A DNA stretch of 17,557 nt. It comes from Promethearchaeota archaeon. GTDB lineage: Archaea > Asgardarchaeota > Lokiarchaeia > Sigyniarchaeales > SOKP01. This document shows positions 1 to 17,329 of this stretch, piece by piece. The stretch is taken from contig JBHLNF010000025.1 in NCBI GenBank assembly GCA_048937405.1, forward strand, positions 1-17,557, given 5' to 3'. The translations under genes were made by a program, and so were the position numbers. Position 1 is the first letter of the stretch; each line of letters starts with the position of its first letter. Below the pieces are notes generated by a model, which was not told the DNA's origin, did not search any database, and was given only the letters and a program-made list of their open reading frames with translations.

Positions 1-228
1 ATTTTCAGAAAATATCTTAAAGAATCGAAATATGGAGCCATTTGGCGGAGGTTCAAGTCTTACTTTTCGCTTAGCAGCATCATTTTTATGCTTATTATCT
101 GCAGGTGAACTATCTGTGACCCACATCTCAAATAAGCTTCTTAATTTGATAGGGGGCCCGTCATAAGCTACAATTGATTTACCCTCGTCATTATGACCCG
201 TTATTACTCTTCTCAACTTATCTTCCAT
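1..228 (-). CDS. Cupin-domain protein, N-terminal part (runs off the left window edge)
   Basis: Not in the ORF track. Hand translation from ATG at 228: MEDKLRRVITGHNDEGKSIVAYDGPPIKLRSLFEMWVTDSSPADNKHKNDAAKRKVRLEPPPNGSIFRFFKIFSEN, open to position 1. RRV(V/I)TGH-x2-GK-x-(I/V)V...DG and PP-x-GS-x-FR are typical of a widespread cupin-domain family. A GGAGG RBS lies on the minus strand at 240-244. Confidence 0.75.
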   Translation of the reverse strand, partial: MEDKLRRVITGHNDEGKSIVAYDGPPIKLRSLFEMWVTDSSPADNKHKNDAAKRKVRLEPPPNGSIFRFFKIFSEN

Positions 229-469
229 AAAAGAAAAAACCTCCATTTACTGTTAAAAAGTATATACATTCATTTAAAACCATTTCTTTTCAATGACCTA
301 ATTATACACTATCTCTCAATATTAAAAGAAGAAATTCAGGTATTCAAAAATGTATTACCTTATTTGTAAAATTAGGCTACTTTTTAAAAAAAAAGATACT
401 TAAACATAATAATACTGTTGAAGAAAAACCAATATAACCTAATTAATACTAAGATTAAGTGTTTTAACT

Positions 470-592
470 ATGAATGAAAATTTAGAAAAGAAGGAAAAAA
501 AAGTATCATTAAAAGATTTCTCAACTTTCATTATAATGATCTCTACTTTTTATACAATCTCATTTTGTATAAATTTGTTCTATATTTCTTAA
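470..592 (+). CDS. Possible 40-aa membrane peptide or remnant of a degraded membrane-protein gene
   Basis: MNENLEKKEKKVSLKDFSTFIIMISTFYTISFCINLFYIS*: charged N-terminus, then a hydrophobic stretch. Hydrophobic coding-like sequence continues in other frames to about 713. No clear RBS. Confidence 0.2.
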   Translation: MNENLEKKEKKVSLKDFSTFIIMISTFYTISFCINLFYIS

Positions 593-887
593 TCTTTTTA
601 ATTGTTCAACACTTACGGGTATCTCTTTATTTGGATTATCATTTTTAATTTGTCTTAATAAGTTTCGACAAAATTCTAAAAGAAAATTAATATCATCTGG
701 TATTCGAATGTAATTATTCTCCAAATTACTCATCCTTCAATTTTGAATTTTACCTAAATTCTGTATATTGAAGTATATACAGTTGTATATTATTTGTATA
801 ATTGCATATTTAAATTTTTTGGTTCTAAGATTATTAATATGTTTATCCCCATATATTTATATATGATAATATACAAATAATATACAA
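549..887. promoter_or_regulatory. Array of TTGTATA/TATACAA boxes (candidate operator) between the divergent cupin and wHTH-Roadblock genes
   Basis: Exact boxes start at 551, 565, 783, 794, 870 and 881, with variants CTGTATA at 761 and TATACAG at 776. They form perfect inverted repeats 549-557/565-573 (9 bp), 761-768/775-782 (8 bp) and 783-800/870-887 (18 bp). Each 18-bp arm holds two boxes 11 bp apart. Confidence 0.55.
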
Positions 888-1017
888 GTAAAATAATATA
901 TAAGAATATATCACAATTATTAAGAAGAAATTATAAACACATACTAATCATAAGAGACTGATATTTACAATTGTCATTTAATAACCAAGAGGTCACAGTT
1001 AGGAGAAGTAAATTAAA

Positions 1018-1023
1018 AGGTGA
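1018..1023 (+). promoter_or_regulatory. Shine-Dalgarno AGGTGA for the extended wHTH-Roadblock ORF
   Basis: AGGTGA lies 6 nt before in-frame ATA at 1030. The same AATTAAA(A)GGTGA context precedes the GTG start at 16880 with 7-nt spacing. Confidence 0.6.
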
Positions 1024-1029
1024 GAAATA

Positions 1030-1854
1030 ATAACTGAATATGAACTCAGCAATAAAGATCGTATTTTAAATCTTCTTAAGTCTCAATCATTAACAAGTAT
1101 TGAGATATCAAAACAGCTCAGTTTAACTAAACAAGATACACGTACTTATCTTCTACGCCTAAAAAAACAAAATAAGATTCAAACTCTCGGAAAGAGAGGA
1201 AGGCAATATATCTACACCTATAAAGCTCCTGTAGACTCTGAAAAACCTCAGATTGATACCAATATACTAGTAGAAGTATTAAAAGATTATCTTGAGTCTG
1301 AACCAAGCTTTAAAAAAGAGGTCAAAAAGAAAATTGCTGAACTTGAAGCGAAACTTAATAGCCTAGCCTCCAAAACAAACGAAACTTATGATGAACTTGA
1401 AGAAGAACTTGAAATGTTACAACACATAGAACCACCTGGCAAACAAAAAGCAAAATTCCCTGAATTCTTAACTAGACAAGCATTTGAATCCCATGTTTTA
1501 GAAAATCTTGACAATATCTTAGAAAAATTAATAGATTCCATTCCAGAAGTAAATGCAGCAACCCTCGTTTCAACTGAAGGAGAAATATTAGCTTCAGTTA
1601 TGCCTAAGGATGTTGAGGAAACCACTATAGCTGTAATGATTGCAGCACTTCTTTCATTGGCCGAAAGCGCCATAACTTTAATTAATAGGGGGGAAATTCA
1701 GCAATTATATATTAAGGGAATAGATGGATACCTTCTCGTTTTACGAGCAGGTCCCAATGCTGTATTATCGCTCTCTGCCTCGAAAGATGTAAGACTTGGA
1801 GAGATTTTTCTCTATTGCATACGAACCTGTGAGAAAATCGCAAAATTAATTTAA
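1030..1854 (+). CDS. Winged helix-turn-helix + coiled-coil + Roadblock/LC7 (MglB-like) fusion protein, about 274 aa
   Basis: The frame of the tracked ORF 1414-1854 is open back to TGA at 1021-1023. The extension reads ITEYELSNKDRILNLLKSQSLTSIEISKQLSLTKQDTRTYLLRLKKQNKIQTLGKRGRQYIYTY (wHTH pattern), then ...EVKKKIAELEAKLNSLASKTNETYDELEEELEM (heptad coiled coil). The C-terminal ~120 aa are Roadblock/LC7 (LVSTEG..., IAVMIAALLSLAE, QLYIKGIDGYLLV, KDVRLG). Confidence 0.85.
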   Translation: MTEYELSNKDRILNLLKSQSLTSIEISKQLSLTKQDTRTYLLRLKKQNKIQTLGKRGRQYIYTYKAPVDSEKPQIDTNILVEVLKDYLESEPSFKKEVKKKIAELEAKLNSLASKTNETYDELEEELEMLQHIEPPGKQKAKFPEFLTRQAFESHVLENLDNILEKLIDSIPEVNAATLVSTEGEILASVMPKDVEETTIAVMIAALLSLAESAITLINRGEIQQLYIKGIDGYLLVLRAGPNAVLSLSASKDVRLGEIFLYCIRTCEKIAKLI

Positions 1855-1950
1855 AGATTTTTGAAACAAGTTTAGCTTTTCGTCAAATTATAAAATGAAT
1901 TTTGAGGGTAACCTACGTATAGTTTTTAAAAAACAAATTTAATGTTAAAT

Positions 1951-1995
1951 TAATCATCATCTAAGAAATCGAGGTCCACCACTCGCTTCTTTTTC
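1951..1995. repeat. Copy 1 of a direct repeat: orphan 3' end of the 2869-3303 gene
   Basis: 1959-1995 matches 2881-2917 at 36/37 nt, plus a shared TAATCATC. The minus strand reads KKKRVVDLDFLDDD* versus KKKQVVDLDFLDNDD*. An in-frame TAG lies just upstream and there is no plausible start with an RBS. Confidence 0.9.
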
Positions 1996-2028
1996 TGTTG
2001 ACTTCTTCTAAAGATGATCTATCTTTCT

Positions 2029-2430
2029 CTATTTCTCATTTCTTAAGATTTGTGCTATCTTATATAACACATTCTTGCAATCAAAGAAAACTACCCCCAT
2101 TTTCGCTTTTTTTGTAGTTGAAACTGTCAATACTGCTTCCTCTGCGTCTAAAATCAATATATAACCATCAATTCCTTTAATATACATCTGGTTAAATACC
2201 CCTAATTCCATATCTACAATAGTTCTTTCGGAGATAGAGAGTAATGTAGCAGTCATCGCAGCAATTCTTGGTAAATTATATCCTCGGGGTAATATGGAAA
2301 AAATTGGAAAACCTTCTATTGAAGTAATTATTGCAAATTTAATATCTCTATTATTATGTAATAAATCCTTCAACACAGCTTCTAGTTTCGCTGTTCTATT
2401 ATTTTCTATAATATTTTTTTCTATAATCAT
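2029..2430 (-). CDS. Roadblock/LC7 (MglB-like) domain protein, stand-alone, 133 aa
   Basis: AIITSIEGFPIFS, RIAAMTATLLSISER, QMYIKGIDGYILI and LTVSTTKKAKMG match the archaeal Roadblock pattern. It is clearly paralogous to the C-terminal domain of 1030-1854. Confidence 0.9.
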   Translation of the reverse strand: MIIEKNIIENNRTAKLEAVLKDLLHNNRDIKFAIITSIEGFPIFSILPRGYNLPRIAAMTATLLSISERTIVDMELGVFNQMYIKGIDGYILILDAEEAVLTVSTTKKAKMGVVFFDCKNVLYKIAQILRNEK

Positions 2431-2832
2431 AATCTTAGTAATTTTTTATTCTATTGAAATCTAAAAAGATCTAAATAAACTCAATTTCATCTTAGAACCT
2501 TTTATCATATTTATCTTTTATATCTTTCTTAATTTGGTTAATTACTTACTAATAATTTGTAAAACTCTTCAAAGAAAAATTGAGAAACATTGGAAGAAGA
2601 AGTTAATAGAATTGCTACTGTAATTGCTCAAATACCCCCTGATGGATTTCTACATAATAAAATTTGTATGAATACCAACTTGAAAATGAGAAGTCTTGAT
2701 GCATTATTCCAATATTACGGCCAATGAATCGCTTAAGTCGATTTGTATTTAGAAAATAACAACGATTTATTCTAATTTCTTAATATTTCTGCAAATAGTA
2801 ATTGGTTTAATTAAGGTATAGTGTATAATATT

Positions 2833-2852
2833 TAATTTTTTTAAAAAAATTA
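2833..2852. terminator. Palindromic T7/A7 tract (TAATTTTTTTAAAAAAATTA), candidate oligo-T terminator
   Basis: Perfect 20-bp palindrome about 17 nt downstream of the 2869 stop codon. A similar TTTTTAAAAAA lies at 1923-1933, after repeat copy 1 and between the convergent Roadblock genes. Confidence 0.35.
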
Positions 2853-2868
2853 GTAATTATATTGACGT

Positions 2869-3303
2869 CTAATCATCATTATCTAAGAAATCGAGGTCCA
2901 CCACTTGCTTCTTTTTCGGTGATACTTTTTTTAATGTCGAACCATGTTTCCCTAAATCGTTAATATTATCAAATCTAATATCAGGAAACATCTGATTCAT
3001 GAAATCTATCTCATCTTGAGAACCTTCCTTAAATAAATCTTCGAATTCTTTCAGCTGACCACCAAAATCTCCAAGCTTTTTTGAGGTAACTTTCCCAACA
3101 ACTTTACCAAATCTATCCGAAATTTTATTCATGAATTTTGAACTGCGAATACCTTTTGACTTCTGTCGCTCGCGTAATTCCTTTTGGATATATACACTCC
3201 ACTGATCTCGTGGAACTCCCATGAATCTGAGCTCATCCTTCATTTTCCGGATTAATTCTTTTTCTTCTTTTGAAAACGAGTGTTTCGGCTTTTTTCTACT
3301 CAT
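2869..3303 (-). CDS. Hypothetical protein, 144 aa, with basic N-terminus and acidic/hydrophobic C-terminal tail
   Basis: ATG start, helical charged composition, ends KKKQVVDLDFLDNDD. No family recognised. Confidence 0.75.
   Translation of the reverse strand: MSRKKPKHSFSKEEKELIRKMKDELRFMGVPRDQWSVYIQKELRERQKSKGIRSSKFMNKISDRFGKVVGKVTSKKLGDFGGQLKEFEDLFKEGSQDEIDFMNQMFPDIRFDNINDLGKHGSTLKKVSPKKKQVVDLDFLDNDD
2870..2917. repeat. Copy 2 of the direct repeat (genuine 3' end of 2869-3303)
   Basis: Differs from 1951-1995 by one substitution (2906 T vs 1984 C) and a 3-nt indel. Confidence 0.9.
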
Positions 3304-3503
3304 AACAATATAGATAACGATTTTAAAGTTATAAAAGCTCGTAAAATCTAATTAACATGGTTCTTAAATCTTTACTATTTCCAATTGAATAAATTTCTAA
3401 TTTAAATTACAGGCTAATTAGTAAATAAAAAAGAAGAAATTCTTTTATACAAGAGTGTAATTACTTATTTGTAATAATTCAAGCTAAAGCTTTTTTGATA
3501 AAG

Positions 3504-4445
3504 ATGAGAGAATTAAATAATGAGGAAGAACAATGGTTAAAATTGTTTGCACAGGATAATGAATTCTTCCATTCTCTTTTAGAATTTTATGAAAGAAATA
3601 ATTATTTATCTGATAAACAATATTCTTGCTTAGCTCGAGATATTTATAAGGCTCAAGAAGATGGTGATACAATATTAGATAAAGAAGAATTAAGATTTCT
3701 TAAGGAAAATGCTGATAACGATGAAGAATTGATGGAACTGTTGGAAATTTATGAAGATAATGGTTTTTTAGATGAATATGAGTATAGGTAATTTTTACAT
3801 TTAAAACATAAATCTAATAATAAAGAAAAATGGACAGAAGATTCTCGTATTCAAAAATCTGTTGAACTAAAAAATATTAAAATTAATCATAAAGGAGATC
3901 CTAAGAAAACTATAGTTAGAATTCCTTGTCCTCACTGTAATTCCCTTTGTTCCCCTCAAGTTAGATTCTGTGTAAAATGCGGAGAACCTTTACCTAAAGT
4001 TGAAACATATGAACAATCTAAAGATAAAGCATTAGTTAATAGTTTGAATTCTCAGAAACCTATTGAAAGTTTGAAATTTAAAAGAGTAAAGGATTTTTTA
4101 AATGAGTATTTTTTATCTAAAGACTTTAATTATGATGAAATAATTTATGTTTTAAAACTAGAAAATAATAAATGGTGGATTGGAAAATCAAAATACTTTT
4201 TAAAACAAATTGAAAGTATTAAAAAAGGTAAAACAAATAAGTGGATACGGGAAAATCCGGTTGTTTCCGTTAAAGAATTAATCGAGGATGGAGATATTGT
4301 GAGAATAACATTGGATTATATGGAAGAATATGGATGGGAAAATGTTCAAGGAAGTTGTTGGTATGATGGACAACTTGATAAATACATTCCTAATAAGATA
4401 AAACGATATATTTCAGAACAAAAGAATCTAATTATAAAAGACTAA
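3504..4445 (+). pseudogene. Helical-repeat + zinc-ribbon + degenerate GIY-YIG-like protein interrupted by one in-frame TAA (3789-3791)
   Basis: Tracked ORFs 3495-3791 and 4044-4445 share a frame. The gap 3792-4043 is stop-free and encodes CPHC-x10-CVKC (3927-3980). The C-terminal part has IYVLKLENNKWWIGKS...ITLDYMEEYGWENVQG, resembling the YVLxLxxxKYYVG...YGxxNVRG GIY-YIG subfamily. Confidence 0.75.
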
Positions 4446-4466
4446 CTTAAATCATCAAGATTTTTA

Positions 4467-5024
4467 TTAAGTTTTTCTCATGTATTTAATATATGTTTCA
4501 AATAATTTGTATAATTTATTAAAGAATGGCTTTGCTTCTTCTGCTTTTTTTCGATCCACTTTAAAATGTTCATGAACGATTTGATTCCTTATTATCCTCC
4601 ATTCATTTAATTCTCCTAATATTCCCGAATAAATATTCAAATTATCTTCTATCTCTTTTATAATTTCACTGAGATTTATCTGATCATTAACTTTTATTTC
4701 TTTATTTAATATTTCTTGATAAAAAGATTTATAGAAAATTTCAGCTCCTTTATATTTGAGCATTATATAATCACTGTACCGTCTGTCATCAAAAGCCCTC
4801 TGGGCATCCCTATTAATTTCATAGATATTAGCCATAAATGGAGGCAAATTTTGAGTTCCTATCTTAACACCATCAATTATTTTAGCGAGTATATCTGAAA
4901 CGCCTTGTACTATCTCTGTAGGATTTATTTTTGTGCCATCTTTATCCAAAAGCGGTATGACTTTCGAAATATTTCGAAAAAATCCAAAAACCTTATTGAG
5001 TAGTTCTTCTTCTTTTGAGTTCAT
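4467..5024 (-). CDS. HEPN-domain protein (DUF4145/Abi-like, predicted RNase), 185 aa
   Basis: All-alpha C-terminal domain with AQRAF...Y...AEIFYK (E-x3-K) and the R-x4-H motif RNQIVH (nt 4572-4589), followed by the typical terminal helix (KKAEEAKPFFNKLY). Confidence 0.75.
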   Translation of the reverse strand: MNSKEEELLNKVFGFFRNISKVIPLLDKDGTKINPTEIVQGVSDILAKIIDGVKIGTQNLPPFMANIYEINRDAQRAFDDRRYSDYIMLKYKGAEIFYKSFYQEILNKEIKVNDQINLSEIIKEIEDNLNIYSGILGELNEWRIIRNQIVHEHFKVDRKKAEEAKPFFNKLYKLFETYIKYMRKT

Positions 5025-5033
5025 TTTATGAAT

Positions 5034-5975
5034 TTAATCCTTTTTTATGTTTAGATTCTTTAGAATTGAATCAGAAATTCTAGATTTAAGGTTGCTTATC
5101 TTTATTTCATTAAAAAATCGCATTAAAAATAACCAAATTTCACGTCTAACATAACTTGGATCGAGAAAGTTAATCTCTTTAGGGATTTTAATTTCACTTA
5201 GATTTAAAGGTGTTAAGTGTTGAATAATAATGTATTCTAAAAACTCTACCATCCCATCATAGCAATTCAAAACTTCATCTTGATTTAGTTCATAACCATC
5301 ATGTACAGCCTTGTTTCTAAGATGATTCATGTTGATTAACTTTTCTTTAAGTTCATTTGGAAGATTCAATTCTTTAATTTTCTCTGGCATTTCTTTTTTA
5401 TTATTTTCATTTTTTTTTCGGATTTTATAATAACCATCTAAACTAGATATTAATCTAACAAAAAATTTAAAGGATTCAATCTTTTCTGCTTTCCAATCAT
5501 TTAGATCTTGACTCCAGGCATTTAAATTGATCTCATCTAAAGCGTTAATAATTTTATTTTTTATTTTATTAGTAAACCCAAGAAAATGCTCAGTATAGTC
5601 CTTATAAGGCTTAGGATAATTCTTGATGAAATATTTAAACTTTTTATTATATTCTGATAATCCGATATCATCTTCTGATATTCTCTTGATTGCTTCTTCA
5701 GCTATAAATCTACTAATATAGCTGCATTCTGGACATGTAATAATCCAATTCGTTAAGACTATATTATTTGGTTTGATGATAAATTGATCAATACCTTTAA
5801 ATACATTATTAGGGCTTCTAATCATTAGTTCTCCATTTTTTTCAACAATATGGCTTGATCTTGGGTATTTATGGATATTAATTACTTTTTCTTGGTTAAT
5901 TGATTCAGGAATAAACTGATTTTGGCAATTTGGGCATTTAAATTTATCATTTAAGGGTGATTTTTCTTTATTCAA
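5034..5975 (-). CDS. Zinc-binding (CPNC...CPEC) + HEPN-domain protein, 313 aa
   Basis: Two CxxC pairs in the N-terminal region and the R-x4-H motif RNKAVH (nt 5301-5318) in a LINMNHLRNKAVHDG context. TTG start. The 9-nt gap to the next HEPN gene suggests an operon. Confidence 0.75.
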   Translation of the reverse strand: MNKEKSPLNDKFKCPNCQNQFIPESINQEKVINIHKYPRSSHIVEKNGELMIRSPNNVFKGIDQFIIKPNNIVLTNWIITCPECSYISRFIAEEAIKRISEDDIGLSEYNKKFKYFIKNYPKPYKDYTEHFLGFTNKIKNKIINALDEINLNAWSQDLNDWKAEKIESFKFFVRLISSLDGYYKIRKKNENNKKEMPEKIKELNLPNELKEKLINMNHLRNKAVHDGYELNQDEVLNCYDGMVEFLEYIIIQHLTPLNLSEIKIPKEINFLDPSYVRREIWLFLMRFFNEIKISNLKSRISDSILKNLNIKKD

Positions 5976-6505
5976 ATTGATTCACTTTATAAACTTGTTA
6001 ATTTATATACATTTTTGGATATTCAACGTTTTCAAACAATTTTCTTAATCTCTCTATATTTTGAAATATTTCCTTTCTAGTAACTTATTTGATTCAAAAA
6101 TCTTAAAAATATTATTCTAATAATTTCCATTATAATTTAGCGCTATAACTCTTAGAATTCTTTTAAAGATATTCAATACTTCTTTTTAATTGGTTATTAA
6201 GGGTCTAGACTAAAATCTTGAATATTAGCTTTAAATAGCCAATTGTGTAATACATACCCAAAAGTAATATAAATTCACTTATAAAAATATATTTTCTTGT
6301 CTAACATTATTATATAGGGTATGCAGGGTAAATATACGTGAAATAACCCTTTCATTACAAAAAAAGTATAAATCTTATACTAAAATTGGAAAATATTTTT
6401 TCTTTAATTATCTAATTATTATTAATTCACTAAGAATATCTAATAAAAACATGGAAAATTGAATATAAATATAATATCTACCATTATTTTATATGAGACA
6501 ATATC

Positions 6506-8122
6506 ATGAATCAAAAAGACCTTAACGAATGGACAAAAGATAAACCAAAAAAGACTGTAAAAATGGAAAAGACAAATACAGGTAAAACTAAAAATAAAAA
6601 AAATAATTCCAAGGGACCTATTGGTTTTGAGGATAAATTATGGGAAGCTGCAGATAAAATGCGGAACAATATGGACCCGGCTGAATATAAACATGTTGTC
6701 TTAGGTCTAATTTTTTTGAAATACATATCAGATGCTTTTGAGGAAAAATATAATCAACTTAAAAGTGAAAAATATGCTGATCCGGAAGATCCTGATGAAT
6801 ATTTAGCTGAAAATATTTTTTGGGTTCCTAAGGATGCGCGATGGTCATTAATCAAAGATAATTCTAAAAATTCAAGAATAGGAATAATGATAGATGATGC
6901 GATGGATGCGATTGAAAAATCCAATAATTCTCTTAAAGGTGTTTTACCAAAAATTTATGGGAGTCCTGATTTAAATAAAATTATGCTTGGAGGACTTATT
7001 GATCTTATTAGTGATATTGGTCTAGGAGATCGTGAAAGTCAGTCAAAAGATATACTCGGGAAAGTATATGAATATTTCTTAGGGAAATTTGCTATGGCGG
7101 AAGGAAAAGGAGGTGGGCAATTTTTTACTCCTACTTGTATTGTTAGACTTTTGGTTGAGATGATTCAACCATATAAAGGTCGTGTATATGACCCTTGTTG
7201 CGGTTCAGGAGGTATGTTTGTCCAAAGTGAAAGATTTGTTGAAACTCACGGTGGTAAATTAGGAGAAATATCTATTTATGGTCAAGAATCTAATCCAACA
7301 ACATGGAAATTAGCAAAGATGAACTTAGCTATTCGTGGTATTGAAGCGAATCTGGGACCAAAACATGCTGATTCTTTTCATAATGATATGCATCCTTCAT
7401 TGAAAGCGGATTTTATTTTGGCTAATCCCCCTTTTAATGTAAGTGATTGGGGTGGTGAAAGACTTAAGGATGATATAAGATGGAAATACGGTATTCCTCC
7501 TAAGGGAAATGCTAATTATGCCTGGATTCAACATTTTATTCATCATCTAGCCCCGAATGGGATTGCTGGTTTTGTATTAGCAAATGGGAGTTTAACCTCG
7601 GAAACTTCAAATGAGTACACAATTAGGAAAGAAATTGTGGAATCAGATTTAGTCGATTGCATCATTAGTTTACCAGGACAACTCTTTTTGACCACTCAAA
7701 TTTCTGCAAGCTTATGGTTTATTTCTCGTTCGAAGTCGAAAGGTAAATTTAGAGATCATCAGAATGAAACATTATTTATTAATGCTCATTCATTTGGACA
7801 AATGATCGATCGTAAAACAAAGGAATTTTCAGAGCAAGATATTAGAAAAATCTCGGAAACTTATCAAGAATGGCGGAAGCTTAATAGTAACTATAAGGAT
7901 GAATCAGGATTTAGTAAATCTAGTACGTTAGATGAAATTAGAAATAATGATTATATTTTAACCCCTGCAAGATATGTTGGAATAAAAGAAGTAGAATATG
8001 ATGATTTTTTCGAAGAAAAATTACATAAACTCATAACTGTTTTAATTGCTCAAATGGAAGAAAGCAAGGAAATTAGTAGAGAAATAAAAAAAAATTTTGA
8101 GATTATAGGATTTAAAATGTGA
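6506..8122 (+). CDS. hsdM: Type I restriction-modification system M subunit (N6-adenine methyltransferase)
   Basis: HsdM N-terminal LWEAADKMR...EYKHVVLGLIFLKYISD, GQFFTP, SAM-binding motif I YDPCCGSGG, catalytic NPPF, C-terminal LTPARYVG. Confidence 0.97.
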   Translation: MNQKDLNEWTKDKPKKTVKMEKTNTGKTKNKKNNSKGPIGFEDKLWEAADKMRNNMDPAEYKHVVLGLIFLKYISDAFEEKYNQLKSEKYADPEDPDEYLAENIFWVPKDARWSLIKDNSKNSRIGIMIDDAMDAIEKSNNSLKGVLPKIYGSPDLNKIMLGGLIDLISDIGLGDRESQSKDILGKVYEYFLGKFAMAEGKGGGQFFTPTCIVRLLVEMIQPYKGRVYDPCCGSGGMFVQSERFVETHGGKLGEISIYGQESNPTTWKLAKMNLAIRGIEANLGPKHADSFHNDMHPSLKADFILANPPFNVSDWGGERLKDDIRWKYGIPPKGNANYAWIQHFIHHLAPNGIAGFVLANGSLTSETSNEYTIRKEIVESDLVDCIISLPGQLFLTTQISASLWFISRSKSKGKFRDHQNETLFINAHSFGQMIDRKTKEFSEQDIRKISETYQEWRKLNSNYKDESGFSKSSTLDEIRNNDYILTPARYVGIKEVEYDDFFEEKLHKLITVLIAQMEESKEISREIKKNFEIIGFKM

Positions 8123-8167
8123 ATAGGGATTAAAATTCCATAATTAAACCAAATAGAGATTTACTAA

Positions 8168-9454
8168 ATGAAAAATGTTTATACTTTTAAAAAAACTGAA
8201 ATTGGAATGATTCCAGAAGATTGGAGATTAGTCACTATCCCAGAAATAGCAGACAATTTTGACAAAATAAGGGAACCTTTAAGTTCTAAACAACGCTCTA
8301 AAATGAAAGGTAAATATCCTTACTATGGGGCGGCAAAGGTTATTGATTATATTAATGACTATAAATTCGAGGGAGACTATCTTCTTATAGCTGAGGATGG
8401 CTCAGTGACAAGCAATGGATCTAATCCCACTTTACAGCTAGCCCATGGAAAGTTTTGGGTGAGTAATCATGCTCATGTTCTACAATGTAAGTCATATGAA
8501 GATACTCTATTCTTATATTATCAATTAAAAAATACAGTAATTACTCCATTTATAACAGGAGCGGTTCAACCAAAGTTAAATCAAAAAAATCTAAACAGAA
8601 TTAAAATTGCATGGATTGATTCAGATTATGAACGGCATTTAATAACAAAAATTCTCTCTGATCTTGATAAAAAAATTGAACTTTACCATAAGATGAACGA
8701 AACCCTAGAAAAGATGACACAAGCGATCTTTAAATCTTGGTTTATCGATTTTGAACCTTTTCTAGATAAGGAATTCGAGGAAAGCAAGCTTGGAAGGATA
8801 CCAAAAGGGTGGAAAATTAAACCAATAGGAGAATTTGCAGATTTTTTAAGAGGTTTCTCATACAAAGGTACTGAAAAGTTTGATGCACCAAATGATTATG
8901 TTTTTATAACTCTAAATAATGTATTTGAAGGTGGAGGATTTAAACCAAAATACACTTGGTTAAAAAGTGAAAGGCTTAAGGAACGTTATTTTATAAAGGA
9001 AGGTGATTTAATAATTCCTAACACTGAACAAACTAAAGATGGCAGATTATTAGGATTCCCTGCGATTGTTTATTTTCCTTATAATTATAAAAAAAAGAAA
9101 GGTGTTTTTTCACATCACATAACTAAAATCATTCCAAAAAATAATAATCTTCTTTATTATTTATGCCTTGTATTGAAAATATTCCAAAAGGAAACCACTA
9201 CTTTTCATACTGGAACTACCGTATGGGGATTAGATATAAAGGGATTTAAAATGAATAAATTAGTAGCAGCTCCACCTGATCAGAAATTAAGTGAATTTAG
9301 TACTTTAGTTAAACCATATTTCAATAAAATTATTTCAAATTGTAAAGAAATTATGATTTTAGAAGAATTACGAGATCTCCTATTGCCACAATTAATGTCT
9401 GGGAGATTAAGAATTATAAATTCCCAAAAATTTCTGGAGGAGAACAGCAATTAG
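8168..9454 (+). CDS. hsdS: Type I restriction-modification system specificity subunit
   Basis: Two TRDs, each preceded by a conserved region ([10 protein letters not shown] / [10 protein letters not shown]). Helical spacers [10 protein letters not shown]...AQ-like TQAIFKSWF and [12 protein letters not shown]. Located between hsdM and hsdR. Confidence 0.95.
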
Positions 9455-12400
9455 GATTACCGAGAATGAATTAGAAGAAATGTCACTTGAAATCCTTCAA
9501 GATATTGGATATGAGACTATTTATGGACCTGACATTGCATGTGATGGAAAAAATCCTGAAAGAGAGTCTTATCAAGATACAATTTTAGAAGCACGTTTGA
9601 ATTCTGCTCTTAGTAGATTAAATCCAAGTATACCTAAAGTAGCAATAAAAGATGCTTTAAGAAAAATTCATAAAATAGATTCTCCCGATTTGATAATTAA
9701 TAATAAATCTTTTCATAAAATGCTTGTTGAGGGTATTGAGGTGAAATATCAATATGAAGGACGCCAAAAGGGAGATATTGTACAGATTTTTGATTTCAAT
9801 GATGTAGATAATAATGATTGGCTAGCTGTTAATCAATATACAGTAATTGAAATGAAAAACCAAGTTATCTTCAATCGAAGACCTGATATAGTTTTATTTA
9901 TTAATGGAATCCCTGTAGTAGTTATAGAATTAAAGAATCCTGCAGATGAAAATACTACCGTTAAACAAGCATATAATCAGATTGAGACTTATAAAAACCA
10001 AATCTCTTCATTATTTCGGACAAATGAATTATTAGTCATAAGTGATGGATTTGAAGCAAAAGTTGGAAGCCTGTCAGCTAATTGGGAACGATATATGCCT
10101 TGGAAAACTATTGAGGGAGAGATAGAAACTGGTAACACTAGCTTTAAAATAGTTACATTGATTAGAGGGATACTTGATCCTGCTCGTTTGCTTGATTATA
10201 TTAGATATTTTATAACTTTTGAAGATGACGGAAGCGATATAATTAAAAAATCAGCAGCATATCATCAATTTCATGCGGTAAATAAAGCTATTAACGAAAC
10301 CTTGCGAGCAACGAGAGAAGAGGGAGATAAAAAAATAGGTGTAGTATGGCATACACAAGGGTCGGGGAAAAGCTTAACAATGCTATTTTACACAGGAAAA
10401 TTAATACAATCACTAAAAAATCCAACTATCTTACTGATTACTGATAGGAATGACCTTGACAATCAATTATTTAATACATTTTCACTTTCTAAAGACTTAA
10501 TAAGACAAATTCCTAGACAAGCGGATAGTAGAGATCAAATAAAAGAATTACTTACTACTTCTGGAGGTGGTGTTATCTTTTCTACAATTCAAAAATTTCT
10601 TCCTGAGAAAGGAACAGAATATCCTCGTCTCTCAGATCGAAACAATATTATTGTTATTGCTGACGAAGCGCATCGTAGTCAATATTCATTCAAAAAAACG
10701 GTATCCGATAAGGGATTATTAAAAGAAGGATTTGCAGCCCATATTCGAGAAGCTTTACCTAATGCTTCTTTTATTGGGTTTACGGCTACTCCAATCGAAT
10801 TAGTAGATAGAAACACATTTCAGGTTTTTGGTGATTATATAAGTATTTATGATATTTATCAATCAATTGAAGATAAATCAACGGTTCCAATTTACTATGA
10901 AAGTCGTTTGGTTAAATTAAAGCTAAATGAAGCCACAATACCTACCTTAGATGAAGAATTTGATGAAATTACAGAAGATGAGGAGGAATATGCTCGAGAA
11001 AAATTGAAATCAAAATGGTCTAGAGTTGCTGAATTAGCAGGAGATCCTGATAGATTAGAAGAAATCACAAATGATTTAGTTGAACATTTTGAAAATCGAA
11101 CTGACGCGGTTGAAGGCAAGGCACTAGTAGTTTGTATGAGTCGAGAGATTTGCGTTGATTTATACAATCAAATTATTAAAATACGTCCTAATTGGCATTC
11201 CGATGATGATACTAAAGGAGAGATAAAAGTAGTAATGAGTGGTTCTGCTAGTGATGTTCAAAAAATGCAACCTCATATTAGACCAAAACATAGAAGGGAA
11301 TTAATTAAAAAACGGTTAGTTGATCCTGAGGATCCTCTTAGAATTGTACTTGTTAGAGACATGTGGTTGACTGGTTTTGATGCCCCTTGTCTACATACGA
11401 TGTATATTGATAAACCAATGCAAGGACATAATCTTATGCAAGCTATTGCCCGTGTAAACCGCGTTTATAAGGATAAACCAGGCGGACTTATTGTTGATTA
11501 TATTGGAATCGGATATTTTTTAAAGTTAGCTTTATCTATGTATTCTAGCCAACAATCGCGAGAACAAACAGGAATACCTATTGAACAAGCTCTGGAATTA
11601 ATGCTAACTTATTATGAAATTGTTTCGGATATGTTCTTTGGATTTGATTATTCAAACTTTTTTAATGGGTCTCCTTTACAAAGATTACAATTATTACCTG
11701 CTGCTATGGAACATATTCTTCAATTAGAAGGAAGAGATGGAAAAAAAGAATTTTTGGATAATTTAGCAGCATTAAACAAGGCATTTTCATTAGCAACACC
11801 TCATGAAGAAGCTCTAGCAATTCGAGATGATCTAGCCTACTTTCAAGCAGTTCGAGCTGGATTTGTGAAATCAACAACTCCTTCAGGCAGAAGAAAAGAA
11901 GATATTGATCATGCGATAAGACAATTAATTTCAAGAGCTGTTATTTCAGATGAGGTTATAGATATATTTGAAGCAGCAGGATTACCAAAACCAGAAATCT
12001 CAATTTTATCGGAAAAATTCCTAAAAGAAGTAGAAGGTCTGGAGCATAAAAATTTAGCTGTGGAATTATTGAATAAACTTTTAAACGATCAAATAAAATC
12101 ACGAGCTAAGAAAAACCTCGTTCAATCAAGATCCTTTGCAGAATTATTACAAAAAGCAATTATTAAATATCAAAATCGAACAATTGAAGCAGCAAAAATT
12201 CTTGAAGAACTTTTGGAGTTAGCAAGGGAAATCCAAAAAGCTCAGAGTCGTGGAGAAGATTTAGGTTTAAATGATAATGAGGTTGCTTTTTATGATGCTC
12301 TAACTACTAATAAAAGTGCGGTTGAGATTATGGGAGATGAGCCGCTTAAAAAAATAGCTAAAGAGCTGGTACGAGAAGTAAGGAAATCAGCTACTATTGA

Positions 12401-12563
12401 TTTTACAGTAAAAGCAAGTGTTCAAGCAAAAATGAGAATTACTATCAGGAGATTATTAAAGAAATATAAATATCCTCCAGATCAACGACCTGAAGCTGTT
12501 AGGTTGATAATGGAACAAGCTCAATTATTTGGTGAAGAATGGGCTATAGCTACTGTTGTTTAA
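9450..12563 (+). CDS. hsdR: Type I restriction-modification system R subunit (endonuclease/SF2 translocase); tracked start 9480, probable start 9450
   Basis: PD-(D/E)xK nuclease [20 protein letters not shown], Walker [36 protein letters not shown]3387-like C-terminus. The in-frame upstream [10 protein letters not shown] matches the usual HsdR N-terminus and follows GGAGG at 9436-9440. Confidence 0.97.
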
Positions 12564-12598
12564 ATTTGTAAAAATATAATATATATTTCATCTAAAAG

Positions 12599-12784
12599 TT
12601 ATTTTCCAAAAATTTCAAATTGTTCAAAAGACTTAATTTTACCAATAGTAATTTCACTTTTTATTTCTGTCGATTCATAAACATCAATTCTTTGTTTTGA
12701 ATTATCTGCTGTGATGTATATATAAGGACCAAATGATTTTATTAAACTATCTTCGTTATTAGATTTATAAATATTTTTTTCCAT
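12599..12784 (-). CDS. Small hypothetical protein, 61 aa, downstream of the SDH protease
   Basis: ATG start 17 nt after the protease stop, with purine-rich GAGATGA upstream and the same orientation. Confidence 0.5.
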   Translation of the reverse strand: MEKNIYKSNNEDSLIKSFGPYIYITADNSKQRIDVYESTEIKSEITIGKIKSFEQFEIFGK

Positions 12785-12801
12785 AATTTCATCTCTTTAA
12801 A

Positions 12802-13914
12802 TTAATCTTCATTTTTAAAGAATTTCCAACCCTGTGATATAGGTATCGTATTAACTTTTATATTCATGTCTGGCATCCGAAGCGCATTTATTTTTCCTTT
12901 TGTTTTATATTCACTTCTACATCTGGTGCTCTCTAAAATAGCAATAAAGTTTTCATATTCTACTGGAGGGATAGATTTAATATTTATAGATTGTATGATT
13001 TTTTGATATACATTTTGTAGTAGTTGGGGAGGTAGATTCTGAGGGATTTGAATTTGAGATACAGTTTCTATTAGTTTTGAGACCTCTTCATCTTTTAAAA
13101 TGATTTCTAATGGATTAAAAGGCCAATTACACTGCATTTCGTTTTCAATATCCTCCCAAACATTCCACATTAACTTTTCAAGATTATCATCTGGATCAAT
13201 TACTTTTAAACCTATAGATCTCGCTTCTGTTTTACCCAATGGATATCCGTGGTCATAAAAAGAAGTATTTAAAGATTCTACAATTGTTTCTACTTCATCT
13301 TCATCCTCCATATGCGTTTTTAATAATTTCTTGCTTAATGAAGATGATAGATGAGAAACACGTTTTGCTATTCCAATTGGAATAGATCCGACATCTTTAC
13401 ACATTATCTCAAAAGAATTTTGCAGTTGTTTTTGATCAGATATACCTACATCCTTTTTAATGAAATCTAGATAATATTTTAGATCTTCTGGACCAAAATG
13501 AAATTTTTGTGGAACTGCCTGCCCTGGTTCTTTTTTATAATAAGTTAATTGAGGATCAACTGGACCTAAATTGGAAAAGGGATGCATTATTATTTCATCA
13601 GCACCTAATGCTATCAGTGTGGCAGCACTATAAGCCGCGTATGGAAGCAATGCCCCAATTTTTTCAAATCTTTCTCTTAGCATACAAATTATGCGCCAAG
13701 AAACTAATGCATCACCTCCATTACTTATTATTAAAATATCAATTTCCTTTTTATCCTTTGGTATTTCAATAAGTTGCTTTGCAAGCTCAGAAACTATATC
13801 AGGTGCAATCAATCCTGATGCATTACTTCTAATACTAGTTACATATACTAATAAAGGTCTATTTCTTATATCTTCAATACTTTTATATAATTCTATTCGG
13901 TTATTGTAAGTCAT
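12802..13914 (-). CDS. SDH-family Clp-fold serine protease (ClpP/S49-like)
   Basis: IDILIISNGGD, AYSAATLIALGADEIIM (catalytic Ser), LGPVDPQ (Asp) and HGYPL (His), with EARSIGL downstream: the Ser-Asp-His order of the SDH_sah family. Confidence 0.88.
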   Translation of the reverse strand: MTYNNRIELYKSIEDIRNRPLLVYVTSIRSNASGLIAPDIVSELAKQLIEIPKDKKEIDILIISNGGDALVSWRIICMLRERFEKIGALLPYAAYSAATLIALGADEIIMHPFSNLGPVDPQLTYYKKEPGQAVPQKFHFGPEDLKYYLDFIKKDVGISDQKQLQNSFEIMCKDVGSIPIGIAKRVSHLSSSLSKKLLKTHMEDEDEVETIVESLNTSFYDHGYPLGKTEARSIGLKVIDPDDNLEKLMWNVWEDIENEMQCNWPFNPLEIILKDEEVSKLIETVSQIQIPQNLPPQLLQNVYQKIIQSINIKSIPPVEYENFIAILESTRCRSEYKTKGKINALRMPDMNIKVNTIPISQGWKFFKNED

Positions 13915-14106
13915 TAGATTTCATTATTCCTTTGTGTTGAATAATATATACATTATAATCTAGTAAAGAAAATATTATAATATTTGCGAAATCGTGAAAT
14001 AACCGTAAATATCTATTAGATTTTAAAATACGAAATAGAAGAAGAGGAGTCTACTCTAAAATTTAAAAAACAATGGTAAATATGATTTTTCTATAAAATA
14101 ATTAAA

Positions 14107-14535
14107 TTATTTTTTATCTAATTGGTAATTACATAGTTCATCGCAAATTTTAGTATAGGGATTTTCTCGACTCACATGAAAGAACTCTACCTTTTCATAT
14201 TTCTTACATAACTGGTACACTTTACTGCGCAATTCCATAAGGTGTGGGTAATTTACCTTCCATTTCTTGTTAATCTGCTGGACTGCTAATTTATTGTCAG
14301 AATAGATTTGAATTCGACCATTATGGAACTTTTCAGCTCCTTTTAATGCGTTGATAATTGCCGTATACTCTGCAGTGTTGTTAGTTGATGTTCCAATATA
14401 TCCAGAACCTTTATGAATAATTTTGTCATTATCAACAAATATAAAAGCATAGGCTGCTGGTCCGGGATTACCCCGTGCCGCACCATCAGTGTATATCTTT
14501 AGAGTATTTCCTCGTTTAATTGAGACACTACTCAT
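14107..14535 (-). CDS. rnhA: Ribonuclease HI family protein (archaeal-type)
   Basis: YTDGAARGNPGPA (D17), TNNTAEY (E56), YSD (D80), HVSRE and CDEL (D132) give an intact DEDD set. GGAG RBS upstream. Confidence 0.92.
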   Translation of the reverse strand: MSSVSIKRGNTLKIYTDGAARGNPGPAAYAFIFVDNDKIIHKGSGYIGTSTNNTAEYTAIINALKGAEKFHNGRIQIYSDNKLAVQQINKKWKVNYPHLMELRSKVYQLCKKYEKVEFFHVSRENPYTKICDELCNYQLDKK

Positions 14536-14668
14536 GTTTGATCTCCATCTAATTTCTTACAAATTCTGTTTCTTTCAATTCAATATTGTTTGTAATATAC
14601 TTTTGATATAAGAAATCATTGGTTGTTTACCCTTTTTTCATTTATAAACTATGAGAATAATTTGATCT

Positions 14669-14959
14669 ATGAAGAAGATGATAAAAAATCAAAAGTATAA
14701 CGAGAATCAACTCCACCTCAATCAATATTCTAACGGTCAATTAGCAGTATATTTACTTGGTCAAACAGGTGAACCTATAGCAGAACTCTCAATAATGCAC
14801 GATTCAGTGGAACTTGCTTTAAATGAATTTGTTTTGAAAGATTATTCTGAAAATAGTGATTTAGCTACAGAACTCTTAGAATCAAATCTTATTGTATCTA
14901 CTGATAGATATATTTTAATTGGATCACATCTATGTCCTATTTGTCAAGTTATATCCTAA
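14669..14959 (+). CDS. Hypothetical protein, DUF4313-like
   Basis: YSNGQLAVYL...GEPIAELSI...LALNEFVLKDYSEN...STDRYILIG...CPIC resembles the DUF4313 pattern (recognised from memory, not searched). It overlaps the convergent helicase gene by 4 nt. Confidence 0.55.
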   Translation: MKKMIKNQKYNENQLHLNQYSNGQLAVYLLGQTGEPIAELSIMHDSVELALNEFVLKDYSENSDLATELLESNLIVSTDRYILIGSHLCPICQVIS

Positions 14960-16728
14960 ACTTGTTCTGATTCTAAAGATTTTATTAGATCTGTATATCC
15001 AGTACCACTCAAAATTAGTCTTTTTCGAGATCTCGTCATACCTACATAAAGTAATTGACGATCCTTATTTGTTTTATACTTATCTAATTCAGGAATGATT
15101 ATAGTATCTGCTTCCAAACCTTTTGTACCATAAAGTGTCCCAATTAATAATCCTGGGGTTTCAAAATTATAATCTTCTAAGTCTCTCCATTGGAGATTGT
15201 TTTTTCTAAGATAATCGAAAAAACTTAAATCATAATTTCTTTTTGCCATATTATATTTAAAAAGAATTAAAATTTCATCAGGGTTTTTCAAATATCGAGC
15301 AACTTTTTCAGTTAGCTTCAAATACTCCTCTTGACGATTTTTTGATATCAAAATTTCTACAGTTCCATGTTCACCAGCAAAATCTTTTGTTGAGATGAAT
15401 TCATCAAAATGATCAAGTAGTTTAATAAGATTTTGAGGTATTGTTTTCTGAGCTATTGCACCAATTTCTATGGGAACACGATAAGATTTCTCAAATCTTT
15501 TTACTCTCCCTTTTGCTTGAATCCCAACATTAATCCAATAAAATTTCTTACGTGCATAGATACCTTGAAGACCATCACAAGTAATTAATAATGAATTGGT
15601 CTCAGGATTTAAAACTTGCATAATTGGGAGAAACCAATCTTTTTCGAAGTCTTGAGCCTCATCAATTAAAATCGCATCATAAATTACTTTATTCTCACCC
15701 AAGACTTTTAACATTTGCATAAATATCTTTGGAACAAAGTATTGAAAAAATTCAGTCATTATATTCTCCTTTTCAGCTTTTTTCTCTGCTTCATTGTATA
15801 TCTTAGTAAATTCATTATTAGCACTTAAAATGTAATTTCTTGCCCAGCTATGAAACGTATTAACCGTTATATTTGCTTCATAATCTTGGGGATTGAATAA
15901 TTGGAATAATAAATTTTTAAGCAATTTATTATAGCATAAGATTAAGATTTTCCAATCAGGATGACGTTTTGCTAAGATTCTGGCACGAGCTATCAAAAGA
16001 ACAGTTTTCCCACTTCCTGCAACACCAAAAATTAATCGATGACCTGCCCCTAATTCTCTTGCCATACGTTCTTGTTCTTGATCCAAAAGTTTGATTTTAT
16101 CTCCATCTGAAAAATATTTTAAAAGATTAGCTTGCTGAGGAGTTGGCAATCTACAGGTTGGAATTATATTAGCCCTTAGTAATTCAAATTGTTTATATGA
16201 AATCTTAAAATTCAAAGGGAAAATGTCATTACAAAATTCCGTAAACTTATCATTCCAATCAAATACTTCCTTAAAACATAAATGAATTTTAGAAGGCGCT
16301 ACGCTTTTAATTTGCTCAGCAACATAATCATCTTGCGAAATTTGACTAAAACCGACTATTCTAGTTATTGGAATATCAATCGGTTCAGAAAAGTTACAAT
16401 ATTCAATTCTATCTTTTATCGCACGCCAGTATTGATACAATTGATCAAACGGATTCTTGATTGGTATGGTATTGTCATCTTTTAATCGTTCCCATTTGCC
16501 CGATTTAGTTATTGTTTTAAGATATTCGCCAGAATAATCTTTAATTTCAACAACTACAACACCATATTTCAGAGAGATTAAAACAAAATCAGGATGGAGA
16601 TCTCCGATATATGGTTCAAAATAGCCAATTAGGTGGTTTTCATTAAGAAAAACTTGATCAATTCGCGAAAAGAATCTCTTTTCTCCATCAGTGGCAGTTA
16701 AAGGTGGTATACTAAGGAAATTTGCCAT
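14956..16728 (-). CDS. NERD nuclease + UvrD-like superfamily I helicase fusion, 590 aa
   Basis: NERD: GEKRFF, HPDFVLI...GVVVVEIKD, KNPFDQ. Helicase: GVAGSGKT (Walker A), TFHSW, DEAQD, KSYR, KGLEAD, LYVGMTRSR. Confidence 0.92.
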   Translation of the reverse strand: MANFLSIPPLTATDGEKRFFSRIDQVFLNENHLIGYFEPYIGDLHPDFVLISLKYGVVVVEIKDYSGEYLKTITKSGKWERLKDDNTIPIKNPFDQLYQYWRAIKDRIEYCNFSEPIDIPITRIVGFSQISQDDYVAEQIKSVAPSKIHLCFKEVFDWNDKFTEFCNDIFPLNFKISYKQFELLRANIIPTCRLPTPQQANLLKYFSDGDKIKLLDQEQERMARELGAGHRLIFGVAGSGKTVLLIARARILAKRHPDWKILILCYNKLLKNLLFQLFNPQDYEANITVNTFHSWARNYILSANNEFTKIYNEAEKKAEKENIMTEFFQYFVPKIFMQMLKVLGENKVIYDAILIDEAQDFEKDWFLPIMQVLNPETNSLLITCDGLQGIYARKKFYWINVGIQAKGRVKRFEKSYRVPIEIGAIAQKTIPQNLIKLLDHFDEFISTKDFAGEHGTVEILISKNRQEEYLKLTEKVARYLKNPDEILILFKYNMAKRNYDLSFFDYLRKNNLQWRDLEDYNFETPGLLIGTLYGTKGLEADTIIIPELDKYKTNKDRQLLYVGMTRSRKRLILSGTGYTDLIKSLESEQV

Positions 16729-16879
16729 TTTCTTATAATTATTTCATCTAATTCTAAATCATTGGTTTTATATAAATATAAATCATATATTTTCTATATA
16801 AAATTTAAGTGAATCAATCAATCTTTCAAAGTGAAAAATATGAAAATATTAATTCAATTTAATTAAAGGTGATTTCAAA

Positions 16880-17329
16880 GTGAATTTTGAAAATGAAGAA
16901 TTCATACTAACTTGGGATGAGTTAAAACTTTTAGTAGAGAATTCTATATCTTATATAAAACAAGGATTAAGTGAAGCAGGATATAACATAGATCAAATTC
17001 ATCAACGCCCGAATTTGAAAAAAATTTATGATCAAATTATACAAATAAAAGATAAATTCAATTTTGATGAAAAATTGATTCAATGGATGGAAAGACAAAA
17101 GAAAATTGTTAGGGAAGAAAACAAAAGAAGTGAAGAAGAAAGAAAACATAAGACATTGAATAAACTAAAAGAAATTAGTAAAAAATATCCAAGAATATTA
17201 ATTGATGAAATTGCTAATTTAGTTGGAGAGCAACCACCATATTTTATGACAATATTGAAGGAGTTAGAAGAAAAAGGAGAATTAAAATTTCAATATATTA
17301 AAAGTACACATGCAATCCTTTTTGAATAA
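16880..17329 (+). CDS. Coiled-coil + C-terminal PCI/winged-helix-like protein, 149 aa
   Basis: GTG start 7 nt after AGGTGA (16867-16872). The C-terminus KKYPRILIDEIANLVG...ILKELEEKGELKFQYIKSTHAILF fits the PCI-type winged helix common in Lokiarchaeia. Confidence 0.7.
   Translation: MNFENEEFILTWDELKLLVENSISYIKQGLSEAGYNIDQIHQRPNLKKIYDQIIQIKDKFNFDEKLIQWMERQKKIVREENKRSEEERKHKTLNKLKEISKKYPRILIDEIANLVGEQPPYFMTILKELEEKGELKFQYIKSTHAILFE

Follow-up and report, generated by a model that had tools for sequence, protein, structure and literature searches.

A winged helix-Roadblock fusion protein of a lokiarchaeial lineage, with a probable near-cognate start codon and a candidate tandem-repeat operator in its own promoter

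The stretch of DNA analysed here, to which we refer as the window, consists of 17,557 nucleotides from a Promethearchaeota archaeon (contig JBHLNF010000025.1 of assembly GCA_048937405.1, positions 1 to 17,557 of the forward strand). Positions 1030-1854 of the window are an intact gene for a 274-residue regulator of the one-component type, in which a winged helix-turn-helix (wHTH) domain, a conserved helical segment and a Roadblock/LC7 domain follow one another in a single chain; the frame is conserved, it is under purifying selection, and both folds are supported. An earlier note, made from the sequence alone, had proposed such a fusion. When the locus is considered as a whole, its best explanation appears to be an autoregulating one-component regulator with a weak near-cognate start, a tandem-repeat operator and a Roadblock input, a reading to which we assign a probability of roughly 0.55. 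The parts of the gene are the following:

1030-1854, plus strand: complete coding sequence of the wHTH-helix-Roadblock protein, 274 codons followed by the stop codon TAA at 1852-1854 (open frame, homology, substitution rates)
1051-1221, plus strand: winged helix-turn-helix domain, residues 8-64 (AlphaFold2, Foldseek, Pfam)
1258-1416, plus strand: conserved helical segment, residues 77-129, ending at the ATG at 1414 that serves as start in the open reading frame (ORF) track
1489-1848, plus strand: Roadblock/LC7 domain, residues 154-273 (Pfam PF03259, profiles of the Protein Data Bank (PDB), Foldseek)

There are no in-frame stops across 1024-1854, the frame opening directly after the TGA at 1021-1023. 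The first in-frame ATG, GTG or TTG is the ATG at 1414, and translation bears out the statement of the earlier note that the ORF track calls only the last 146 amino acids (aa), with 128 further open codons (1030-1413) ahead of them. At the composition of the window (29% G+C, with a stop probability of 0.082 per random codon) a run of 130 stop-free codons would arise by chance with P of about 1.4e-5. A database search with the 274-residue translation matched 114 proteins; several dozen homologues of 260-287 aa cover 96-100% of the query at 50-78% identity, the full-length identity to 24 homologues is 53-78%, and the alignment of 25 family members has invariant residues throughout the N-terminal part. 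The note had asked whether the fusion is kept in homologues: these dozens of proteins retain both the N-terminal part and the Roadblock domain. Nei-Gojobori estimates of the ratio of nonsynonymous to synonymous substitution rates (dN/dS), calculated against six orthologues without indels, are 0.10-0.22 for residues 2-128 and 0.14-0.37 for the Roadblock part; thus, the region preceding the methionine at 1414 is under purifying selection at least equal to that of the remainder. Contigs of two public sediment-metagenome runs, which may derive from the source sample, match 1017-1158 and 857-1296 with zero differences; the public runs listed included no RNA data set.

The identification of the N-terminal region as a winged helix, also suggested in the note, is upheld by structure prediction and, across the family, by profile matches of homologues. 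An AlphaFold2 model based on the family alignment has helices at residues 8-18, 23-29 and 34-46 followed by a beta hairpin at 50-64 (helix-helix-helix-strand-strand), with a predicted local distance difference test score (pLDDT) of about 90; folded alone, the domain reaches a pLDDT of 90 and a predicted template modelling score (pTM) of 0.77. Foldseek retrieves CzrA, HlyU, MarR, ZitR and Z-alpha with template modelling (TM) scores of 0.75-0.78 and root-mean-square deviations (rmsd) of 1.1-2.2, at E-values of only about 2e-3 because the domain is small; the superposition on CzrA has a query-based TM score (TMq) of 0.77 and an rmsd of 1.1-1.4, and the topology as a whole superposes on solved wHTH repressors. 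Among the 25 members, Pfam profiles of the FaeA-like family match 24 (best E 2.7e-7), HTH_11 15 and HTH_24 12. In the region of the recognition helix, residues Q35, D36, R38, T39, Y40 and R43 are invariant across all architectures in which the module occurs.

For the segment that joins the two domains the note had claimed a heptad coiled coil. The helix is present, with a 3-4 spacing of hydrophobic residues (I102, L105, L109, L112) over about four heptads; the coiled coil itself is only plausible, as AlphaFold2 models the helices (77-90, 92-117, 123-129) with low pLDDT in the monomer. This middle helix is the most constrained part of the protein (dN/dS 0.04-0.24), every sibling architecture retains its IAELEAK(L/V)N motif, and it is likely to be a dimerising coiled coil. 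The Roadblock domain follows after a linker, and here the assignment of the note is confirmed: PF03259 matches residues 162-247 with 50.8 bits against a cut-off of 23 (E 1.4e-13), and matches 25 of 25 aligned homologues. The AlphaFold2 model has a helix at 154-170, two strands, a helix at 197-219, three strands and a helix at 256-273, with pLDDT 70-84. PDB profile matches include a Thorarchaeota Roadblock (7f8m, 3.9e-25), Roadblock3 of MK-D1 (9jue, 4.4e-18), CvnB5 and MglB, and Foldseek matches 9jue, 7f8m, 1j3w and 6hjm with probability 1.00 and target-based TM scores (TMt) of 0.73-0.75.

To place the start of the gene, the 5' ends of 15 distinct orthologue loci were read. Two features are relevant:

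1019-1023, plus strand: Shine-Dalgarno (SD) sequence GGTGA, invariant in the 15 orthologue loci and holding the in-frame TGA at 1021-1023
1030-1032, plus strand: proposed near-cognate start ATA, 6 nt after GGTGA; the homologous codon is always ATH (H being A, C or T)

All 15 loci have a common layout, in which GGTGA, with its TGA in frame, is followed by two variable codons and then by the ATH codon, for which 13 loci have ATC, one has ATT and the window has ATA; the codon just before the proposed start is variously ATA, ACA, CTG, ATT, TTA or GTA. No canonical start exists ahead of the winged helix in 10 of the 15 loci. The first ATG, GTG or TTG of the remaining loci is not conserved: in the class with a longer N-terminus the ninth codon may be ATG, GTG, CTG, GAG or ATA, and lies at least 22 nt from the SD.

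The 4.47 Mb genome was also scanned for GGTGA followed by a 6-nt spacer and a frame open for 120 codons or more, the first 25 of which include no canonical start. In 17 of the 18 non-canonical cases at this spacer the codon is near-cognate (ATA 7, ATT 6, ATC 1, CTG 2, ACG 1, other 1), the corresponding genome-wide counts of canonical codons at the same spacer being ATG 17, GTG 3 and TTG 11. Control spacers of 3, 9 and 12 nt yield a diffuse mix of codons, and ATG after GGTGA peaks at spacers of 4-9 nt. Pfam domains begin before the first canonical start in 4 of 10 such genes of the genome: a rubrerythrin, whose whole length precedes the canonical start, an M28 peptidase, an XPD-type helicase and a REC-Lrp regulator. 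Near-cognate starts (AUH, CUG, ACG) are used widely in this organism, and their use looks systematic. Given the constant ATH codon 6 nt after the SD and the statistics of the scan, we strongly infer that translation most likely begins at 1030, with the near-cognate ATA. Example loci with near-cognate starts in genome G000 are C7:319918-320445(-), C15:21986-23140(+), C7:809970-811934(+) and C19:144157-145029(-).

Called starts of the orthologues fall on an internal TTG (262 aa, L007 and L010), on a late ATG (196 aa, on the contig of L012) or on the ninth codon (271-274 aa). Public orthologue entries are often shortened to 262 or 196 aa, in which case the winged helix is missing, and are named only 'roadblock/LC7 domain-containing protein'. 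The expectation of the note that callers restricted to ATG, GTG and TTG would truncate the gene is therefore borne out by these products; the gene can be called hidden in the sense that callers miss it, the cause being a non-canonical start codon and not any lesion.

Other possibilities for the 5' end were considered. The preceding ATA at 1027 is disfavoured as a start, since relatives have ACA, TTA or GTA at that position and a 3-nt spacer is rare in the genome. An upstream ORF ending at the TGA of the SD is ruled out, because the TAA at 1009-1011 closes the frame and leaves three codons without a start. A regulatory RNA structure in the leader was rejected as well: RNAalifold, applied to positions -65 to +30 of 15 orthologues, returned only a 4-bp GUGA/UCAC hairpin of -1.9 kcal/mol, with no compensatory change. 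A simple pattern for the 3' end of the 16S rRNA had no match in the assembly, and for this reason pairing of the SD with the anti-SD is based on general knowledge and on the spacer statistics. The literature searched contained nothing on near-cognate starts in Asgard archaea.

The second set of observations that bears on regulation comes from the intergenic region between the regulator gene and a divergent gene of 57 aa:

856-886, plus strand: candidate promoter/operator of the regulator gene, with a TATA box TTTATATA (856-863), TG, and ATAATATACA twice (866-875 and 877-886) with an 11-bp period
762-820, minus strand: mirror promoter facing the 57-aa gene, with an A-run, a TATA box TTTAAATA (807-814), TG, and the tandem CAATTATACA/ATAATATACA (784-804)
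762-768 and 775-781, minus strand: inverted ATATACA pair of the mirror promoter, beyond the tandem repeat
560-733, minus strand: conserved 57-aa gene, divergent from the regulator, of no known family

Two TATA boxes thus stand back to back in the divergent intergenic region, and behind each of them come TG and two ATAATATACA-type decamers in tandem. Of the 15 orthologue loci, 14 retain the plus-side block almost unchanged between flanks that diverge and carry indels, and the genome contains one exact copy of it. The only two occurrences of the spaced pattern TATACA-N5-TATACA in the 4.47 Mb are in the divergent promoters, one in each, and there are five ATATACA heptamers in 125 bp, as compared to 4.3 expected for the whole window. 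If archaeal spacing is assumed, the repeats of each promoter extend from about -20 to +1, the region occupied by those archaeal repressors that prevent recruitment of the polymerase. An element of this type accompanies the wHTH module in the variants L024, L025 and L027, and also in L032 and L035. In the latter two loci the 57-aa homologue is not encoded and the Roadblock is also absent, which makes the winged helix a more likely binder of the element than the 57-aa protein. The locus combines, in this way, the two properties of a one-component regulator, both domains being in one chain and a conserved candidate operator lying in the promoter of the gene itself. Between the operator and the SD (about 905-975) we also observed a leader block of about 70 nt, which is shared by the window, L007, L010, L014, L016 and L019 and absent in L012, L013, L017, L009, L015, L018, L020 and L021.

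The distribution of the module formed by the wHTH domain and the helix is narrow: it was found in 25 of the 399 genomes of the phylum, all in one family, and in 20 of the 53 genomes of the window's genus. It is not spread across the Asgard archaea but restricted to a single family and, for the most part, to one genus; the module is a young, patchy, lineage-specific invention. The NCBI phylum labels of the metagenome-assembled genomes that carry it (Promethearchaeota, Hodarchaeota, Thorarchaeota, Hermodarchaeota, Heimdallarchaeota) conflict with the genome taxonomy, which places them in one family.

Within this lineage the same module occurs with other partners. At L032 it is followed by a Ras-family GTPase domain (E 2.9e-36) and has the same operator in front, and the protein P0118 has a Ras domain at its very C-terminal end (E 3.3e-33); identity between the two GTPase domains is only 22% and their positions differ, so that L032 and P0118 look like two separate fusions. 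Gelsolin-repeat fusions to the module are found in L027 and P0108. The module also occurs without a Roadblock (L025, P0079), and with long N-terminal extensions (P0066, P0069, P0117). As further observations on these siblings, the L032 gene (L032:2470-5112(+)) encodes an N-terminal extension, the wHTH-helix module, the Ras-family GTPase, a zinc ribbon and a further conserved domain; its open frame, too, starts with an ATA directly behind a stop, and the gene divergent from it is CDC48-N-like. In L027 (2362-3318(+)), L033 and P0108 the gelsolin repeat stands ahead of the module, with Pfam E-values of about 6e-4 to 8e-4, just under the cut-off; these gelsolin-fused loci (L027, L033 and that of the P0108 entry) have the same operator, the 57-aa gene and a free Roadblock upstream. 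P0074 and P0076 are examples of other Roadblock fusions in the lineage, in which an ArsR/MarR-type HTH precedes two Roadblock domains (313 aa) and two Roadblock domains precede a Ras GTPase (457 aa). Ras-like matches in the genome number at least 62; a stand-alone GTPase, G000:C13:307923-308525(-), is 68% identical to the GTPase domain of L032 and is a candidate partner of the regulator.

The mechanism that we propose combines these elements as follows. The initiator tRNA would read the ATA at 1030 as methionine, and the weak near-cognate start would keep the regulator scarce. A dimer would probably bind the tandem ATAATATACA-type repeats through its winged helices: the repeat is near-invariant, unique to the locus, found in both promoters, and present with the wHTH domain where the 57-aa gene and the Roadblock are absent. 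Occupancy of the repeats just downstream of both TATA boxes would block recruitment of RNA polymerase, and the protein would thereby repress itself together with the divergent 57-aa gene (in relatives, the 57-aa gene plus the free Roadblock). Roadblock dimers are GTPase-binding platforms in the MglB-MglA and Ragulator-Rag systems. Here, more speculatively, the Roadblock dimer might serve as an input platform, docking a Ras-, Arf- or Rag-like GTPase in one nucleotide state, and this docking might in turn alter DNA binding; such an input is suggested by the Ras-fused siblings, by small-GTPase genes just downstream of the regulator in L014, L016 and L019, and by the known Roadblock platforms. The Ras-fused siblings thus lend indirect support to the coupling with GTPase signalling that the note had suggested. 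More tentatively, and with a probability that we would set well short of even, the wHTH-helix module and its ATATACA-repeat operator could form a lineage-specific family of Asgard switches, in which the Roadblock dimer would convert the nucleotide state of a GTPase into promoter occupancy and the input domains would be eukaryote-signature parts (the Roadblock here, a Ras-like GTPase or gelsolin in the siblings).

Several observations weigh against this picture of an autoregulating regulator with a Roadblock input. No small-GTPase domain was found in the proteins of the window, nor is there in it a cognate small-GTPase gene, adjacent or co-occurring, as would be expected of a system of the MglB type; the downstream GTPase genes mentioned above occur in only 3-4 of about 16 orthologue loci and are absent from most. 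The conserved promoter block could in part be core promoter (TATA, initiator) and not operator, and winged helices usually bind inverted repeats, while the strongest repeats here are direct. The window protein itself scores 18.1 bits with the Pfam FaeA profile, under the cut-off of 20.7. The start codon has been placed by sequence comparison, and conservation of the ATC at this place does not exceed that of other isoleucine codons, other invariant isoleucine columns having one codon in 12-14 of 15 loci; the evidence for the start is therefore that the codon is always a one-mismatch AUH and never a canonical one, and not a selection for C.

These results can also be interpreted in other ways. 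The alternative that survives best, a possible one although we think it considerably less probable, dispenses with the GTPase: the fused Roadblock would pair with the free Roadblock encoded nearby (2029-2430), perhaps together with the 57-aa protein, and this pairing would sequester or release the DNA-binding dimer, so that the three products of the locus would form a closed feedback loop. This partner switch would be consistent with the fact that almost every orthologue locus contains the free Roadblock and the 57-aa gene along with the regulator, that in relatives both genes are under the shared, operator-bearing divergent promoter, that the Asgard Roadblocks with solved structures form dimers (Tran et al. 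2024, PMC10933270), and that most loci encode no GTPase. However, in the window the free Roadblock gene lies downstream and is convergent, without an ATATACA repeat in front, and the GTPase-fused siblings indicate that the module's natural partners are GTPases. A prediction of the complex of fused Roadblock, free Roadblock and 57-aa protein scored 0.01, which is no answer and counts neither way.

According to a second alternative, which we consider unlikely, the protein is not a transcription factor: the winged helix would bind protein or RNA, as those of eS25 or Z-alpha do, and the promoter repeats would be bound by another factor, for example by the 57-aa protein acting in the manner of the ribbon-helix-helix (RHH) repressors that bind arrays of repeats. 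Foldseek and profile matches do include eS25 and Z-alpha beside the ArsR and MarR repressors, and a weak RHH_3 match (E 0.02) occurs in 1 of the 18 members of the 57-aa family. This tenet is challenged by the operator-type repeats that accompany the wHTH domain in L032 and L035, loci devoid of a 57-aa homologue, and by the invariance of the six recognition-helix residues across all architectures.

Two further explanations, that of a truncated product and that of an assembly error, are close to excluded. That only the 146-aa Roadblock is made from the ATG at 1414, the upstream 128 codons being a decaying remnant whose start was lost, would agree with the absence of a canonical start before 1414, but is very improbable in view of the dN/dS of these codons (equal to or below that of the Roadblock part), of the 10 loci that likewise have no canonical start before the winged helix and of the frame kept in 15 of 15, and of the facts that M129 is not conserved and that no SD precedes 1414. 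Least probable of all is an assembly error that hides a canonical start: some homologues do start with a methionine at the position of Y4, and the ATG at 1040-1042, one base out of frame, would come into frame if the assembly had dropped one base (giving ATGAA for ATGGAA), but this ATG is peculiar to the window, the orthologues of its length class having TTT, ATT or CTT there and no ATG in any frame, the contigs of the two public runs show no indel at 1017-1158, and such an ATG would sit 16 nt from the SD.

The neighbours of the regulator deserve a separate description. The 57-aa gene adjoins it at almost every orthologue locus, with identities of 34-84%. For its product there is neither a Pfam family nor a PDB profile match better than E 0.5, and no look-alike in the Atlas; a short strand-like YIRIP followed by two helices gives it a pattern reminiscent of ribbon-helix-helix proteins. 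In L010 the gene has been called from a start two codons inside the conserved N-terminus. The other neighbour is the free Roadblock gene:

2029-2430, minus strand: stand-alone Roadblock gene, 133 aa (PF03259, E 3.2e-9), convergent with the regulator here

Its product is 35% identical to the fused Roadblock domain, and it is a conserved neighbour: in most relatives the divergent 57-aa gene comes first and is followed by the stand-alone Roadblock gene. The remainder of the window is unrelated to the regulator locus; it includes helicases and, at 6506-12563 on the plus strand, a complete type I restriction-modification operon (hsdM, hsdS, hsdR), after which come genes for a ClpP-like SDH protease, an RNase H and a NERD-UvrD helicase.

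Roadblock proteins, winged-helix regulators and near-cognate starts are each known. The literature searched contained no description of all three brought together in a conserved protein that has an operator specific to its locus, and no characterised example of a wHTH-Roadblock fusion, in agreement with the remark of the earlier note that no characterised example was known. The expansions of Roadblock proteins and small GTPases are hallmark eukaryote-like features of Asgard archaea, for which a fusion of a Roadblock to a DNA-binding domain offers a concrete, testable output. The system is also compact, with a candidate operator region of 125 bp, a locus of three genes, and natural variants that carry a GTPase or gelsolin on the same module. 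If the proposed mechanism is true, it would amount to a wire from GTPase to transcription in a prokaryote for which kinases are not needed. Independently, AUA, AUU and AUC starts of many genes in this lineage mean that standard gene callers truncate or lose genes.

A comparison with known systems shows what each part of the regulator shares with its relatives. The stand-alone Asgard Roadblocks (Thor-RB, 7F8M; MK-D1 RB, 7YH1, and Roadblock3, 9JUE) are the closest solved relatives of residues 152-271, at 31-32% identity, and share the alpha-beta-beta-alpha-beta-beta-beta-alpha fold with both terminal helices; they differ in being single-domain homodimers, none of which has a DNA-binding domain. 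Fusions of GTPases to Roadblock and to longin domains have been described, with no wHTH-Roadblock among them (PMC10933270).

FaeA/PapI-type and ArsR/MarR-type winged-helix regulators provide the best Pfam and fold matches of residues 8-64, but they are bacterial, have other sensor parts and as a rule bind palindromes. For the start codon the parallel is the AUU of infC, a conserved non-AUG start of bacteria: in both cases a near-cognate AUH is kept across species behind a good SD, whereas the autoregulation of infC via the initiation factor is not evident for the window gene, where the start looks like a genome-wide habit.

MglB, the Roadblock GTPase-activating protein (GAP) of the Ras-like MglA in Thermus and Myxococcus (1J3W, 3T12, 6H5B, 6IZW), has the same fold (Foldseek E 1e-8 to 1e-6), and as a dimeric platform that reads the state of a GTPase it is our working model for the input domain. 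It differs in that identity is only 16-21%, the window has no adjacent mglA-type gene, the wHTH domain and the helix are additional, and a GAP role would here be assigned only by analogy. The Roadblock heterodimers of Ragulator/LAMTOR, which act with Rag GTPases, also have this fold (5Y3A, 6EHR) and resemble the present locus in its pair of Roadblock proteins; they are, in contrast, eukaryotic and membrane-anchored, act on kinases and are without a DNA-binding domain.

The closest precedents, namely MglA-MglB, the conservon and the REC-wHTH neighbours of Group 3 MglA, keep these parts separate. In the actinobacterial conservon (CvnA, a sensor kinase; CvnB, a Roadblock; CvnC, a DUF742 protein; CvnD, a GTPase) CvnB5 (3LEQ) matches the window protein at E 1.2e-10, and CvnC is a putative DNA-binding protein. 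Together with the wHTH proteins beside Group 3 MglA, for which a REC-wHTH partner was predicted (Wuichet and Sogaard-Andersen 2015, PMC4316618), the conservon is a prokaryotic precedent for the association of a Roadblock, a small GTPase and a putative DNA-binding protein; its parts are separate proteins of one operon that includes a kinase, whereas here the Roadblock and the winged helix are one polypeptide, in an operon without kinase or GTPase.

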